From a virus (Duplodnaviria > Heunggongvirae > Uroviricota > Caudoviricetes): DNA of 20,241 nucleotides. Location: positions 1 through 20,241 of IMG/VR virus record IMGVR_UViG_2802429219_000017; one strand, written 5' to 3'. Below are positions 2,604 through 20,241 of this stretch, in pieces. Every line of letters starts with the position of its first letter. Within the stretch, counting starts at the first letter, position 1. A program made the translations under genes and the position numbers. The notes under the pieces are model-generated. The model was not told where the DNA came from, made no database searches, and was given only the letters and a program-made list of their open reading frames with translations.

Positions 2604-3692
2604 TCAGGAGCCGATATATTCTGGTTTCATATCTGTCAGTGTCGTTTTATACGCCTCATATAATTCACCCAGATGTGGCCGGGCAGCATTCAGCGTATTT
2701 TCCAGAGCAGTAAATTTTTGTTCTGCATCTGGATCACCGGATGAAGGAAGGTCATTTATCATCTTCTCGATACTGGCAATAGCATTGAGACGGTGATGAC
2801 GCCGAACCACTTTTCCTTTAAGCTCGGCAAAGAATTCGCCGATCTGGTTTTTCTGATCCTCTATCTCTTGGCGTAATGCAGTGGTTTCCTCAGTCGTGGC
2901 CGCGCTTTCGACACGCTGCCGGAATTCATCAATCCACGCTTCGTCAATACGCTGTTCGATGGTTTCTGTTCGCTGCTCGCTTACCTCGCTATAATTCTGT
3001 ACCGGCACAGGATTGATGATTTTTTCCTGTGGCTCTTCCAGTTCGTCCGGGGTATACACGCCCAGGATGACGTCAGGACAATAAAGGCGAGCCCAGTATT
3101 TCAACGCCAGATAGGCGAGCTGTTGTTTCGGGTTTGAGGTCCATAAAGGAGAATTACGCGTAATCACGCTGGAAAGAAACACCGGTTCTCCCCAGGTAAT
3201 CTCACTTTCACCGCGAAGAACTGCACCAACTCGAACTGAGAGACCATACTCATCTTCACTGGTCCAACATGGGATCGTTTCTTTTTTCTCATAGATTCCG
3301 CCTCCTTTGGCCGTTTTCTTAACGGTCTCCACTCGGGTGCGAGAGCATTTCTCCCAGTCTCCCTCGTACTTGTAATGGAAGCGGCCTACAATTGCACTTG
3401 AGCTAGAGATCACAGCGTTAACCAGTTGTGCTTCATAACCCAGAACTCCGTTTACCAGGTGTGTTTTCTGAGCCACAGCGTAGGGGTTCATGCCCCATTG
3501 CATGGCTTGCATGATGATTGCCATGCAGTCGGCAGGCTTTCCGCGAAGGTGATCGGGAACTGTGACGGTGGCCTGTGACATCAACCCGGCTACTTCCTGA
3601 AGTTGCGTCAACGCCTGAACGTTAAAAATAGTGTTACTGGCAGAAATGGTATTTGGTGTCTGCTCTGTCGTGATGATATTGGTATTTTGCAT
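2604..3692 (-). CDS. Single-strand annealing recombinase in the RecT position (divergent from K-12 RecT)
   Basis: Sits immediately downstream of recE with overlapping stop/start. GGAGAA SD favours the ATG at 3692 (MQNTNIIT...); the ORF is open to 3707. The RecT-family call rests on position and general resemblance only. Confidence 0.65.
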   Translation of the reverse strand: MQNTNIITTEQTPNTISASNTIFNVQALTQLQEVAGLMSQATVTVPDHLRGKPADCMAIIMQAMQWGMNPYAVAQKTHLVNGVLGYEAQLVNAVISSSSAIVGRFHYKYEGDWEKCSRTRVETVKKTAKGGGIYEKKETIPCWTSEDEYGLSVRVGAVLRGESEITWGEPVFLSSVITRNSPLWTSNPKQQLAYLALKYWARLYCPDVILGVYTPDELEEPQEKIINPVPVQNYSEVSEQRTETIEQRIDEAWIDEFRQRVESAATTEETTALRQEIEDQKNQIGEFFAELKGKVVRRHHRLNAIASIEKMINDLPSSGDPDAEQKFTALENTLNAARPHLGELYEAYKTTLTDMKPEYIGS

Positions 3693-16888: not shown

Positions 16889-17178
16889 TGGTGGATTTAC
16901 GTAAAGCGGCGCGGGGGCAGATGTGCACCGTCAGAATTCCTGGCTACTGCAATCACGATCCGGAAACGTCTGTGCTGGCGCATTACAGGCTGGCGGGGAC
17001 GTGCGGAACAGCGACAAAACCACACGATATGCAGGCGGCGATTGCCTGTAACTCATGCCACGATTTAATCGACGGGAGAGTAAAAACCAGCGATTACACC
17101 AAAGAAGAATTGCGCCTGATGCATGCAGAAGGTGTTTTTCGCACACAAGAAATCTGGAGAAAGGAGGGATATTTATGA
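16888..17178 (+). CDS. YbcO-like DUF1364 protein (putative nuclease, 96 aa)
   Basis: MVDLRKAARGQMCTVRIPGYCNHDPETSVLAHYRLAGTCGTATKPHDMQAAIACNSCHDLIDGR... resembles DLP12 YbcO, including the conserved Cys/His pattern. Confidence 0.7.
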   Translation: MVDLRKAARGQMCTVRIPGYCNHDPETSVLAHYRLAGTCGTATKPHDMQAAIACNSCHDLIDGRVKTSDYTKEELRLMHAEGVFRTQEIWRKEGYL

Positions 17179-17723
17179 TTTACCCAACGAATACAGGAAA
17201 AAGCGGAGAACACCTTCGTCTCACCACGCTGGAAAGTGTCTGGATTCAGGGAAAACTACGTATGTGGGGGCGCTGGTCGTATATTGGCGGCGGCAGGTCA
17301 GGGAATATGTTTAACCAGTTGCTGGCATCCCAAAAAATGACAAAAACAGCCATCAATGAAGCCCTGCGCAGATTGAAAAAAGCGGGAATTGATAAACCAG
17401 AGTTGGAAGCATTTTTGCGAGAGATGATCAATGGTAAGCAAAAGAGCTGGCTGGCGCATTGTACTGATGCAGAGGCGTTATGTATTGATCGGGTTATAAG
17501 TGAGGTGCTGGCAGAACATCCGGGGTTGATTAGCATCCTCCGACAACGGTATGAGGGGCGGGGGATGAGTAAGCTAAAAATGGCAGAGGAGATAAATAAA
17601 ACGCACCCAGAATGGTCGCTAATTACTTGCCGGAGAAGAGTAGAACACTGGTTGACTGTGGCTGAATTCATGTTGTACCTCCCGATGAAAAATTCGTTTG
17701 GTGAAATGACAGATGGTTGGTGA
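17175..17723 (+). CDS. Putative late-gene antiterminator (Q-like, by position), 182 aa
   Basis: AAGGAGGG SD; ATGA overlap with the ybcO-like stop. Last gene before an AT-rich promoter-like region. Family not recognised with confidence. Confidence 0.5.
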   Translation: MIYPTNTGKSGEHLRLTTLESVWIQGKLRMWGRWSYIGGGRSGNMFNQLLASQKMTKTAINEALRRLKKAGIDKPELEAFLREMINGKQKSWLAHCTDAEALCIDRVISEVLAEHPGLISILRQRYEGRGMSKLKMAEEINKTHPEWSLITCRRRVEHWLTVAEFMLYLPMKNSFGEMTDGW

Positions 17724-17851: not shown

Positions 17852-18160
17852 ATGGTAACAAAATCAATGCATATTATTGAGATTGTTAAACTTTTCTTTC
17901 AACTTGTTAGAGATGACGAAAAAAAGTATGAGCCAGAAGTGTACGTACATACTATGCCGAAAAACGGTTTAGGCAGCATCAAGATTCATGGTCGTGGGGG
18001 ATTGGAGGTTTCTTCCTCTGAGATAAAAAAATCGCCGGAGTTTAAGGCAATGGTGGGCTATGCAAAGGAAAGAGTGAAACATGATTCATCTTTGAACGAC
18101 TTACCAAACGGGTATGAGCAACATCTGCCACACACGAAGTTTGAGGCAGAACACCGATGA
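17852..18160 (+). CDS. Hypothetical soluble protein (102 aa), first gene of the AT-rich cassette
   Basis: AAGGAGGG SD. AT-rich coding sequence. Stop overlaps the next start (ATGA). Confidence 0.6.
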   Translation: MVTKSMHIIEIVKLFFQLVRDDEKKYEPEVYVHTMPKNGLGSIKIHGRGGLEVSSSEIKKSPEFKAMVGYAKERVKHDSSLNDLPNGYEQHLPHTKFEAEHR

Positions 18161-18945
18161 TTGCTGTTTTGCTTGTGCCTCTTCTGATTAGCGGATTTAT
18201 CCTTTTGACCAAACATCCTTATCATTACTACAGGTTACACCGTTACTCTGGCCAGTTGCTTTACATGAAAGCGGCTGGCTATGGGTTTTATTGTGTCCTG
18301 ATAGCAGTAGGGAGTGCTGTCATCACTAAAGCTGTTTTTGCCGATATCCATCCGGTTATGGCGATCGCAGAGTGGGCTGATTTTACCGAGAGTGAGTCGC
18401 AAAATCGACTATGGGCTTGGTTCATTATTATATCTGTAACTTCGATTTCAATCGGCTATGTTTGGGCTTATTTAGCTAAAACTGTATATACAATTAAATT
18501 TCTCAAGGCGCTAATGGCAGAAAACGAAGGGCGTCAATCAATTGTACCGAGAGAGTTAATGAAGCATCTAAAGCTGTCAGTTATGGCTCCCTTAATGCAT
18601 GAAACCCCTATGAATTCATTGTTGTTTAACTCACTGCTTCATAAACGACATATTTTAATAACAATGGATTGTGGAAAAGTTTATGTTGGGGTGGTTTCTC
18701 GCATTACGGAACCGAACGAGACAGAGGCACCTACACAAGAAATCGCATTGACCCCGGTTATGTCTGGATATCGTAACAAGGACACTCGCAGGATATGTTT
18801 TATCAACGATTATTCTGCTCTGTCTGATGTCGATACCAATATTAACATTCCGCGCGAGAACATCACTCATGCATCGTGGTTTAATGAAGAGGTTCATAAA
18901 TCAGTAGACAATACATTCATTGGTCCGCCTGAGCCAGAGAGGTAG
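18157..18945 (+). CDS. Hypothetical membrane protein (262 aa): three N-terminal TM helices plus C-terminal soluble domain
   Basis: Translationally coupled to the preceding gene. Hydrophobic segments around residues 3-18, 42-57 and 85-107. Confidence 0.65.
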   Translation: MIAVLLVPLLISGFILLTKHPYHYYRLHRYSGQLLYMKAAGYGFYCVLIAVGSAVITKAVFADIHPVMAIAEWADFTESESQNRLWAWFIIISVTSISIGYVWAYLAKTVYTIKFLKALMAENEGRQSIVPRELMKHLKLSVMAPLMHETPMNSLLFNSLLHKRHILITMDCGKVYVGVVSRITEPNETEAPTQEIALTPVMSGYRNKDTRRICFINDYSALSDVDTNINIPRENITHASWFNEEVHKSVDNTFIGPPEPER

Positions 18946-19060
18946 TTGTTGGAGTGGCAGTATAAAACCATTGCAAAATGAGCAACAAACTGCTTTAATT
19001 CCGGTACGCTTCGCAAAGCTGTATCGCGAGGCGAACCAAGCGCAATTGAACTTTAATAGA

Positions 19061-19088
19061 ACCCGCCATCGAGCGGGTTTTGTTGTTT
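19061..19088 (+). terminator. Rho-independent terminator after the two-gene unit
   Basis: ACCCGC-CATCGA-GCGGGT followed by TTTGTTGTTT; same stem sequence as the hok terminator. Confidence 0.65.
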
Positions 19089-19164
19089 CTGGTGAACTTG
19101 GTGTTTCATCGTCAGGCGTTCAGGTAAAATTGAGCGTATTACAGATTACGTGGTTGGTGAAGGA

Positions 19165-19734
19165 ATGAAAAATCTACCCGGCGACTATTTTCTTGATGCG
19201 GATGATGACATTCTTGATTTTCTTGAAAAACAGGGAGAAGAGTGCATTCGGGAAATCCATTGCTCAAACAGCATCAACAAGGAAAATGGCTATAAATTAT
19301 TAAGCATTCTGATAGTTGGCATCGGTTCATCATTTTTACTATTAACGCAAAAAACTCATCTGGATTTTTTGGGCGCTGGACTGGCTGTTTTTGTCTTTTA
19401 CTGGTCCATTTGTGCTGTGTACCTTGTTGTTAATGTGCTGAAAGTGCATAAGCGTGCCATTATTCATGCGTCGCCAGATATTCTGTACACTCCGGCGATT
19501 AAGGGCATTACTGCGATGGATTACGCCAGGTTTAAAGAGCGAGGTTTTTCGGGGAAAGACAGCCGTTTGTCCATATTGAGAAGGTACAGATTGATGGCTT
19601 TGTGCAGAACTGCAAACGAATTATTGCAGGAAAATAAAAGACTGAGAGAAGGACTCGAGAAGGCAAGGATATCAGCTATCCTTGCCCCCGTTTATTCATT
19701 AATGGTTTCTGTTGTTATTTACTTTTTCTTCTGA
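19165..19734 (+). CDS. Hypothetical membrane protein (189 aa): two central TM helices and a hydrophobic C-terminal tail
   Basis: ATG at 19165; the track ORF starts with GTG at 19150. AT-rich. Acidic soluble N-terminus. No recognisable family. Confidence 0.55.
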   Translation: MKNLPGDYFLDADDDILDFLEKQGEECIREIHCSNSINKENGYKLLSILIVGIGSSFLLLTQKTHLDFLGAGLAVFVFYWSICAVYLVVNVLKVHKRAIIHASPDILYTPAIKGITAMDYARFKERGFSGKDSRLSILRRYRLMALCRTANELLQENKRLREGLEKARISAILAPVYSLMVSVVIYFFF

Positions 19735-19867
19735 TACCTCCCCAGGAATCACCAACGACCAATCTCTCTACGGAAAAAGGATCCTTCTTTGGTTCCTCTG
19801 TTGATTTGGGCTTTGGAGCTGACTTGGATTTGTCATTTTCATCTAATGGTTTGTTATTCTGACCCAT
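19715..19867 (-). CDS. Candidate 50-aa lysine-rich peptide, convergent with and overlapping the preceding gene
   Basis: Hand-translated: MGQNNKPLDENDKSKSAPKPKSTEEPKKDPFSVERLVVGDSWGGIRRKSK. GAGGT SD ~5 nt upstream. Overlaps the last 20 nt of 19165-19734. Confidence 0.3.
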   Translation of the reverse strand: MGQNNKPLDENDKSKSAPKPKSTEEPKKDPFSVERLVVGDSWGGIRRKSK

Positions 19868-19983
19868 TTCTTACCTCATTTGAGACATTGTTACTTTTGG
19901 CGATTTAACAATATCAAAAATCCGGGTATGTGGTGAATACAGCACTATGAATACGAGAGCAATTACCCACGCACTTTAATCTG

Positions 19984-20007
19984 AGGCTCGCTACGGCGGG
20001 CCTTTTT
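19984..20007 (+). terminator. Rho-independent terminator (8-bp stem AGGCTCGC/GCGGGCCT, UACG loop, T-run)
   Basis: Stem 19984-19991 pairs with 19996-20003 (one G-U pair), tetraloop TACG, then TTTT. Confidence 0.5.
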
Positions 20008-20145
20008 CATATCCGCGCCACGCCCGGCGCACATCAAAAACCACAGAGCCTTTCAGGGGTGAGCTTACGGGATGGTCAGTGTGACTTTCTCTGTGGGCTG
20101 GTCACCCCCCGGGCGGAGGCTCACCCACTAAAAGGAAAAGTCACG

Positions 20146-20241
20146 ATGTTTGGTATTTTCAAAAAGAAAACCCGCAAGGCCATTACTGAAGTAAAGAAAA
20201 TGGAGAACCGCGATGCAGTGGAGGCGACCGTCTGGGGCGCG
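20146..20241 (+). CDS. Partial CDS (N-terminal 32 codons), truncated by the window end
   Basis: AAGGAAAAG SD before the ATG at 20146; MFGIFKKKTRKAITEVKKMENRDAVEATVWGA...; not recognised. Confidence 0.4.
   Translation, partial: MFGIFKKKTRKAITEVKKMENRDAVEATVWGA

Follow-up and report, generated by a model that had tools for sequence, protein, structure and literature searches.

A 50-aa open reading frame (ORF) on the minus strand, running against the 3' end of a 189-aa membrane-protein gene, is on comparative evidence a genuine conserved small-protein gene of enteric-bacterial prophages. Together with its neighbour it makes up, as far as the aligned relatives tell, a conserved convergent small-protein/membrane-protein module that was previously uncharacterised, and by the same measure the gene is solidly real and widespread. 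The best explanation that we can offer, which we hold at a probability of about 55%, is that the minus-strand small gene and the membrane-protein gene form a tail-to-tail moron in which the peptide would restrain the membrane protein and the two genes would interfere with each other.

Conservation and coding character of the small gene

The window (the whole stretch of 20,241 nucleotides that was analysed) carries in its last 3 kb the late-regulatory region of a lambdoid E. coli prophage, in which the two genes are laid out as follows.

19165..19734, plus strand: gene of the 189-aa inner-membrane protein (phrog_11870), three predicted transmembrane helices
19715..19867, minus strand: small-protein gene, 50 aa (MGQNNKP, then a K/P-rich disordered region, the FSVERLVVGDSW motif and a basic tail RRKSK)
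19873..19877, minus strand: Shine-Dalgarno sequence GAGGT, with the ATG 5 nt downstream

A sequence-only reading of the window had placed the small ORF at 19867 to 19715 on the minus strand behind a GAGGT Shine-Dalgarno (SD) sequence, with a 3' overlap of 20 nt with the 189-aa gene (19715-19734) and an inverted repeat upstream, and each of these coordinates matches exactly. Its statement that a transcript of the ORF would be antisense to the 189-aa gene also stands, necessarily so at the 3' end of that gene. The product, MGQNNKPLDENDKSKSAPKPKSTEEPKKDPFSVERLVVGDSWGGIRRKSK, contains nine lysines and three arginines and is hydrophilic, with no hydrophobic segment. It is predicted to be disordered (pLDDT 64), with neither secondary structure nor a predicted fold, and the pLDDT peak of 79 at residues 31-40 coincides with the conserved motif; no match to solved or viral folds was obtained. 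Neither the protein nor its family has a match in Pfam, NCBIfam or PADLOC, or among toxin-antitoxin and defence families. The only library match is phrog_14506 (PHROGs, function unknown; E = 2.8e-5), to which residues 1-50 align at profile positions 19-67 of 71.

Relatives of the small ORF could be reached only via the partner gene, since a single-sequence search with the window peptide among 5.8 billion clusters returned one cluster, 98% identical; tblastn of the same peptide on phages gave low-complexity noise only. We fetched 120 loci with homologs of the partner, mostly 44-66% identical to the 189-aa protein of the window, which brings the set to 121 sequences with the window included. Conservation across related prophages, the check proposed in the sequence-only reading, is found: an intact convergent minus-strand ORF is present in 115 of the 121 loci, with its stop 20-35 nt inside the 3' end of the partner, and 46 distinct peptides of 47-64 aa are encoded. 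Disruption of the ORF beside a retained cassette, which that reading had set against itself, was looked for and encountered only as gains or losses of one or two nucleotides in a homopolymer run; three of the six exceptions are of this kind and the other three are contig ends.

All 46 distinct peptides begin at an ATG, and in all 46 representatives an SD-like 4-mer lies no more than 20 nt from it, at a median spacing of 5 nt. The divergence at codon positions 1, 2 and 3 is 0.41, 0.34 and 0.56, the third position varying most. For the part that does not overlap the partner, the median dN/dS is 0.32, an approximate value given that dS is saturated in about half of the pairs and that the P/Q/K-rich region aligns loosely, and dN is below dS in 99.8% of the 495 pairs with unsaturated dS. 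Moreover, indels within the family are always in frame, and the peptide motif is kept while the DNA diverges. The shared pattern reads M[SGT][EQ]xNKP, a P/Q/K-rich stretch, [DN][FL]xxxRxx[VI]GDSA[ED] and a basic tail, or in short form MSxxNKP, P/Q/K-rich disordered, hydrophobic-GDS-acidic and basic; the window peptide is the most divergent member (K-rich, with GDSW) and still aligns throughout. Taken across the aligned loci, these comparisons show that the ORF, its ATG, its SD sequence and the peptide motif are conserved under purifying selection.

The same architecture extends beyond the enteric bacteria. A Pasteurella multocida replicon, fetched separately from the 121-locus set, carries a partner homolog of 32% identity followed by a convergent 41-aa gene, MSNQKPSQPKPQPTPSKPQQPAYKKPVPVFIGDSVDIPKKK, and the two coding sequences (CDSs) of this pair do not overlap. 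One profile search with the small protein retrieved 50 clusters, and another, over 1.84 billion proteins, gave 31 representatives (50% identity level); all members are stand-alone proteins of 31-86 aa named 'hypothetical', and among those 1.84 billion proteins the family was never found as a domain of a larger one. A family of about 50 sequence clusters in Enterobacterales, with a Pasteurella member, is now defined with its start and motif and with a predicted promoter and terminator.

The sequence-only reading had offered two options, a small regulatory or antitoxin-like component, which is still a candidate role, or an ORF that was there by chance. Such a chance ORF in an A-rich antisense strand, an annotation artefact, would fit with the low complexity of the peptide, with the single cluster that it finds and with its absence from the PGAP annotation of the two near-identical E. 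coli genomes, although the phage deposit does annotate it. All the comparative evidence speaks against it, including the other five frames of the same interval, which contain a mean of 1.3-4.9 stops and are closed in 38-46 of the 46 representatives. We give this explanation a negligible weight and take chance to be excluded, because the ORF is a conserved coding gene under purifying selection that is accompanied by a promoter-like element, an SD sequence and a 3' stem-loop. Two plus-strand small ORFs of the interval (30 and 39 aa) were set aside, their frames being interrupted by stops in the majority of relatives.

In the commoner E. coli variant, PGAP annotates a protein of 71 aa from an upstream start (WP_152948782), to which the 71-position phrog_14506 profile corresponds. 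The alignment favours the internal ATG as the true start, giving 53 aa, because this codon is conserved family-wide; the 53-aa variant is found in ~250 E. coli. Small proteins are systematically overlooked: in this case a standard pipeline leaves out the gene in two genomes and chooses a start at odds with the comparison in the commoner variant.

The commoner E. coli variant has two homopolymer runs, an A7 run directly behind the start codon of the small gene (locus L005, ~3194-3200) and a T7 run in the partner overlap (L005, ~3050-3056). All the frameshift variants (L080, L067, L108, L125 (ST361) and P0190) are length changes in these A7/T7 runs, which could reflect sequencing error or a slippage-based on/off switching of one or both genes.

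Predicted promoter, leader and 3' stem-loop of the small gene

Around the coding sequence, the following elements were delimited.

19908..19916, minus strand: predicted extended -10 element TGATATTGT (TG at 19916-19915, hexamer TATTGT at 19913-19908)
19868..19901, minus strand: predicted 5' leader of ~34 nt with the conserved ATCGCCAAAAGTAAC block, from the alignment of upstream regions
19888-19911 (core), no strand assigned: inverted repeat TTGTTA-N12-TAACAA, with 10-bp arms and one mismatch over 19884-19915
19662..19686, minus strand: 3' stem-loop, putative terminator or stabiliser, in partner codons 166-174 and 28 nt past the small-ORF stop

Alignment of the upstream regions reveals a conserved minus-strand block, aTcTGATATyGTTAAATCGCCAAAAGTAAC, followed by GGAG and then by the ATG. 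Within this block the pattern TGnTAYnGT is conserved; in the form TGnTAYnNT it is found in 38 of the 46 representatives, 46-57 nt upstream of the ATG, and while the n positions vary, the TG, T-12, A-11 and T-7 are kept. From this pattern of conservation we infer that TGnTAYnGT behaves like an extended -10 promoter, and from the position of the -10 element a transcript start near 19901 is predicted. A sigma-70 consensus scan of the window returned no promoter on either strand, because the scanner requires a -35 element, whereas the extended -10 comes from the comparative alignment.

The inverted repeat spans the -10 element, the predicted start site and the leader of the small gene. Perfect 6-bp/N12 inverted repeats number 14 in the window, or 181 when spacers of 0-20 nt are allowed, so the repeat alone is not beyond chance, ~0.5 such repeats being expected per 60 nt. 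Among relatives only the core GTTA...TAAC is general, many arms are mismatched and one subgroup is devoid of the right arm. The sequence-only reading had suggested that this palindrome could bind a regulator; since the symmetry is poorly maintained in relatives, the block reads better as an extended -10 and leader of which the dyad is only loosely kept. The palindrome as an operator or an RNA hairpin was set aside on these grounds (inconsistent symmetry, the arm missing in one subgroup and a frequency equal to chance). An operator may overlap the small-gene promoter.

The 3' stem-loop lies within the coding sequence of the partner. Its 10-bp stem is paired in 93% of cells across 32 diverse sequences, with compensatory changes at five of the ten pairs; none of 500 shuffles scored as high and slid controls pair at 54% or less. 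The imperfections are distributed unequally between the strands, as a plus-strand reading gives 9 G.U and 80 mismatches while a minus-strand reading gives 46 G.U and 43 mismatches, and this asymmetry of G.U versus A.C assigns the stem-loop to the minus-strand RNA. Furthermore, the minus-strand fold is the more stable one in 41 of 44 cases, and the hairpin is present in both the MFE and the centroid structures of the predicted 252-nt small-gene transcript. The covariation and its controls show, at the level of the alignment, that selection acts on the stem-loop as a structure of the minus-strand RNA.

One pair of the stem couples residues 167 (A/V) and 174 (A/T) of the partner protein. The combinations A-A, V-T and A-T occur in 11, 11 and 10 sequences respectively and V-A in none, V-A being the sole combination that would break the minus-strand pair. 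Its absence indicates that the RNA structure of the small gene constrains the protein encoded on the opposite strand at these two residues; an RNA stem-loop of one gene is in this way written into, and constrains, the protein sequence of another. The element may be a weak terminator or a protective 3' hairpin, given the only moderate U content of the tail that follows the stem (TTCTC in the window, TTTTTT in some relatives).

These features of the RNA and DNA levels, i.e. the conserved stem-loop and promoter and a transcript complementary to the 3' end and 3' UTR of the partner, could also be taken to mean that the functional product is the antisense RNA, which would regulate the 189-aa mRNA in cis or in the manner of a type I antitoxin and whose reading frame would be secondary or incidental. 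A precedent is P22 sas/sieB, in which a membrane exclusion protein of a lambdoid phage is under antisense control (PMC12197685). It is at odds with the dN/dS of 0.32 and the third-position excess in the part that does not overlap the partner, with the invariant ATG and SD sequence, the in-frame indels and the peptide motif maintained over diverging DNA, and with the Pasteurella pair, which keeps the peptide without any CDS overlap. We regard an RNA-only function as quite improbable. A dual function of RNA and protein may exist and is folded into our best explanation.

The membrane-protein partner and the moron context

The 189-aa protein has three hydrophobic spans, and its AF2 model is all-helical (pLDDT 86) with helices at residues 14-61, 68-92 and 134-188. 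Its homologs form 141 clusters across Enterobacterales, nearly all of exactly 189 aa and all unnamed. No match was found in Pfam (E<=1), NCBIfam, PADLOC or the PDB sequences, and structure comparison returned a generic helical-bundle similarity only, with no viral-fold match. A search for publications on either gene by RefSeq accession or by topic found none. The signals around the gene are the following.

19054..19085, plus strand: intrinsic terminator upstream of the cassette (13-bp stem and T run, terminator scan)
19125..19130, plus strand: predicted -10 hexamer TAAAAT in the context cATTcAGGTAAAAT, about 35 nt upstream of the 189-aa ATG
19983..20004, plus strand: intrinsic terminator closing the cassette (terminator scan), the only plus-strand terminator of the 189-aa gene

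The -10 hexamer is conserved in an alignment of 30 diverse upstream regions, from which we infer that the 189-aa gene has its own promoter. A terminator stands at the place equivalent to 19054-19085 in most relatives, and by its predicted structure it isolates the cassette from upstream transcription unless this is antiterminated. The equivalent closing terminators of relatives lie 70-90 nt beyond the promoter block.

The cassette extends from about 19095 to 19984. Upstream of it are a DUF1133/Q-like gene (17175-17723) and two accessory ORFs, downstream a TerB-family gene starting at 20147. Its window form occurs in 2 of 5426 complete E. coli genomes, one deposited phage and one 47.7-kb circular 'plasmid' record, while its flanks are common to more than 900 genomes, the best-matching of which carry tRNA-Thr/Gly in this slot; similarity to these tRNA-carrying prophages resumes at the closing terminator. 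The cassette is consequently found in some prophages and absent from closely related ones. In the loci compared the gene pair is always located between the antiterminator Q gene and the lysis genes, and the genes on either side of it differ from locus to locus (three unrelated Q families, several holin types, tRNAs and TerB). A Mantel test on the pairwise distances of the two proteins gives r = 0.80 (0 of 2000 permutations, 0 discordant pairs). Since these distances correlate and the adjoining Q and lysis genes are exchanged, the pair is a unit of inheritance, and the comparison of loci shows it to be a two-gene moron. With a predicted -10 element for each gene and terminators on both sides, the pair would be transcriptionally autonomous, as a moron placed after the Q antiterminator and before the lysis genes.

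Co-inheritance is expected equally for two unrelated genes sharing one moron, which weighs against our main reading. The small protein could act on a target of the host or of a competing phage independently of the 189-aa protein, the two being merely lodged in a shared moron with a layout that is historical. In line with this, the small gene survives alone in strain E1 after removal of the partner by IS3, and there are known soluble small proteins of prophages that act on host machinery, e.g. DicB (PMC6832061). Yet from E. coli to Pasteurella the two genes stay paired and convergent, in spite of a partner identity of only 32% and a free shuffling of the flanks, and the 3' stem-loop of the small gene is built into the partner CDS, where it constrains two residues. 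An independent effector is, to our judgement, possible if doubtful.

Several observations on the surrounding region were made in the course of this comparison. The accessory ORFs between the Q-like gene and the cassette (17852-18945) encode 102 aa and 262 aa (phrog_3630, function unknown), and in the near-identical relatives U90 and pPE4 an ORF6N-domain gene replaces them, which indicates a second variable moron slot. The ~95-nt block at 19000-19094, aaactgctttaattccggtacgcttcgcaaagctgtatcgcgaggcgaaccaagcgca..., ends in the terminator and is 93-98% conserved in many prophages, whether the cassette or tRNA genes follow; against Rfam it has no match above noise (Leu_leader, E = 0.76), and possibly it marks where the Q-dependent late leader ends. 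In most relatives a conserved palindromic hairpin, GCCAGA-N7-TCTGGC, lies between the small-gene promoter and the plus-strand terminator (L005, 3262-3285), with some compensatory variants (CCAGT...ACTGG); in the window (19921-19982) and in locus L055 a different segment of ~60 nt replaces it.

Rfam STnc100 was considered as an explanation of the small ORF and rejected, genuine copies being located elsewhere in related late regions. The match in the window is weak and sub-threshold (E = 0.2, 19 bits, 19900-20014, over the terminator), whereas the elements in the Q-to-lysis regions of relatives score 52-85 bits (gathering score 47) and often stand beside tRNA genes (L009 2917-3139, L035 2194-2411, L036 4428-4634, L004 2271-2457, L038 1034-1161). 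STnc100 seems to belong to lambdoid late leaders as a modular element.

Among the records with this region, the 47.5-kb 'Actinobacillus phage vB_Apl-pPE4' (PP818812.1, L002) is 98% identical to this E. coli prophage region and its stated host looks doubtful; CP100067.1, a 47.7-kb non-mobilizable E. coli 'plasmid' record with the same cassette, is probably a circularised phage genome. Insertion sequences target the upstream edge of the cassette: in HNSQ2209 (L003 386-2974) an IS66 is found immediately upstream of the 189-aa gene, and in strain E1 (L126 1815-2977) an IS3 replaced most of this gene and the small gene is intact. In the phage with the commoner E. coli variant, trkG follows the Rz gene (L005 4820-5561; L126 4839-6296), which identifies this phage as an intact relative of Rac, the defective prophage of K-12. 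We take the K-12 Rac prophage to be devoid of the Q-to-endolysin segment, which would explain how the pair escaped K-12-based small-protein surveys.

Proposed action of the pair and its likeness to known systems

According to our best explanation, the minus-strand unit would consist of the extended -10, the leader of ~34 nt, the SD sequence, a CDS of 50 codons and the 3' stem-loop in the partner CDS. The small-gene stem-loop is inside the partner CDS and the partner terminator is beyond the small-gene promoter, so the 189-aa mRNA comes to its terminator only after traversing all of the small gene, and the predicted transcripts are complementary over about 240 nt. Given this full complementarity, each promoter should depress the other, presumably through transcriptional interference and duplex RNA. 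The disordered peptide would bind the membrane protein via the conserved hydrophobic-GDS-acidic motif and modulate it, most likely as a restraint. The small gene would be expressible in the lysogen; at induction, Q-antiterminated late transcription of the plus strand would silence it and the membrane protein would then dominate. A disordered peptide with a single motif, encoded beside a membrane protein and wired to it by mutual antisense transcription, is best understood as a partner or regulator of that protein, coupled to it by antisense transcription, and the pair may be a self-regulating phage accessory module.

A more specific version is that of a two-component prophage system in which an inner-membrane effector is held by the 50-aa protein, whose mRNA is itself cis-antisense to the effector mRNA. 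The effector would serve in superinfection exclusion, abortive infection or lysis control, following a hybrid type I/type II toxin-antitoxin logic in which Q-dependent late transcription flips the balance at induction. We consider this version rather unlikely. Two observations also stand against the main reading, namely the persistence of the small gene in strain E1 after IS3 removed the partner and the homopolymer frameshift variants of the small ORF beside an intact partner, which may be assembly errors; both speak against an essential antitoxin of the classical type, the variants only if they are real.

The txpA/RatA and bsrG/SR4 pairs of B. subtilis are prophage type I toxin-antitoxin loci with convergent, 3'-overlapping transcripts. 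Our pair resembles them in being prophage-borne and tail-to-tail with one membrane-protein partner and overlapping 3' ends (the CDSs overlap by 20 nt in the window and by 20-35 nt in enterobacterial relatives), and in that the other transcript is antisense to the partner 3' end and has its own, here predicted, promoter and stem-loop. Unlike a type I toxin, which is a small hydrophobic peptide of typically <60 aa, the membrane partner has 189 aa and three helices, and unlike a non-coding type I antitoxin RNA, the antisense transcript encodes a conserved hydrophilic protein (dN/dS 0.32). The pair differs from type II systems as well, the genes being convergent, each with its own predicted -10, instead of co-transcribed in one operon, and the peptide being without a predicted fold whereas a type II antitoxin autoregulates via a DNA-binding domain.

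SgrT acts on PtsG. In a similar manner DicB, a small soluble prophage protein, regulates a membrane protein by acting on ManYZ (PMC6832061). The small protein is like DicB and SgrT in being a hydrophilic protein of ~50 aa encoded next to or within a regulatory RNA, with a membrane protein as plausible target; it is unlike them in having no homology to either and in that its target, only presumed, is the adjacent phage-encoded protein. In the SieB-Esc-sas system of P22 and lambda, a membrane protein of ~190 aa is under the control of a short cis-antisense RNA and a protein antagonist (PMC12197685). Both are lambdoid prophage accessory modules with a membrane protein of similar size and antisense transcription, the control being in our case putative. 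However, the 189-aa protein has no sequence relationship to SieB (no SieB match in Pfam in any of 36 family members), the pair resides in the Q-lysis region while SieB is in the pL operon, and the candidate antagonist is a separate convergent gene and not an in-frame internal product as is Esc. The pair thus resembles type I toxin-antitoxin loci in layout and SieB-Esc-sas in logic but lacks defining features of both, its candidate 'toxin' being large, its antisense RNA coding and SieB homology absent.

Antisense-oriented accessory loci of prophages are expressed in lysogens (Owen et al. 2020, PMC7067206). One candidate from that work, STMMW_20121 of ST64B (PMC7067206), was set aside, ST64B being absent from the phage records with a partner homolog. 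Like other Q-to-lysis morons (stx, tRNA, TerB-like), the cassette is a predicted autonomous promoter-gene-terminator unit, variably present just upstream of the lysis genes; unlike them, it has two convergent genes whose transcripts would be antisense to each other. The slot that it occupies in lambdoid prophages otherwise carries Shiga toxin, tRNAs and other conversion genes. A role of the pair in phage exclusion, lysis timing or lysogen fitness, if true, would be broadly relevant, since the commoner variant of the cassette is present in about 5% of complete E. coli genomes.
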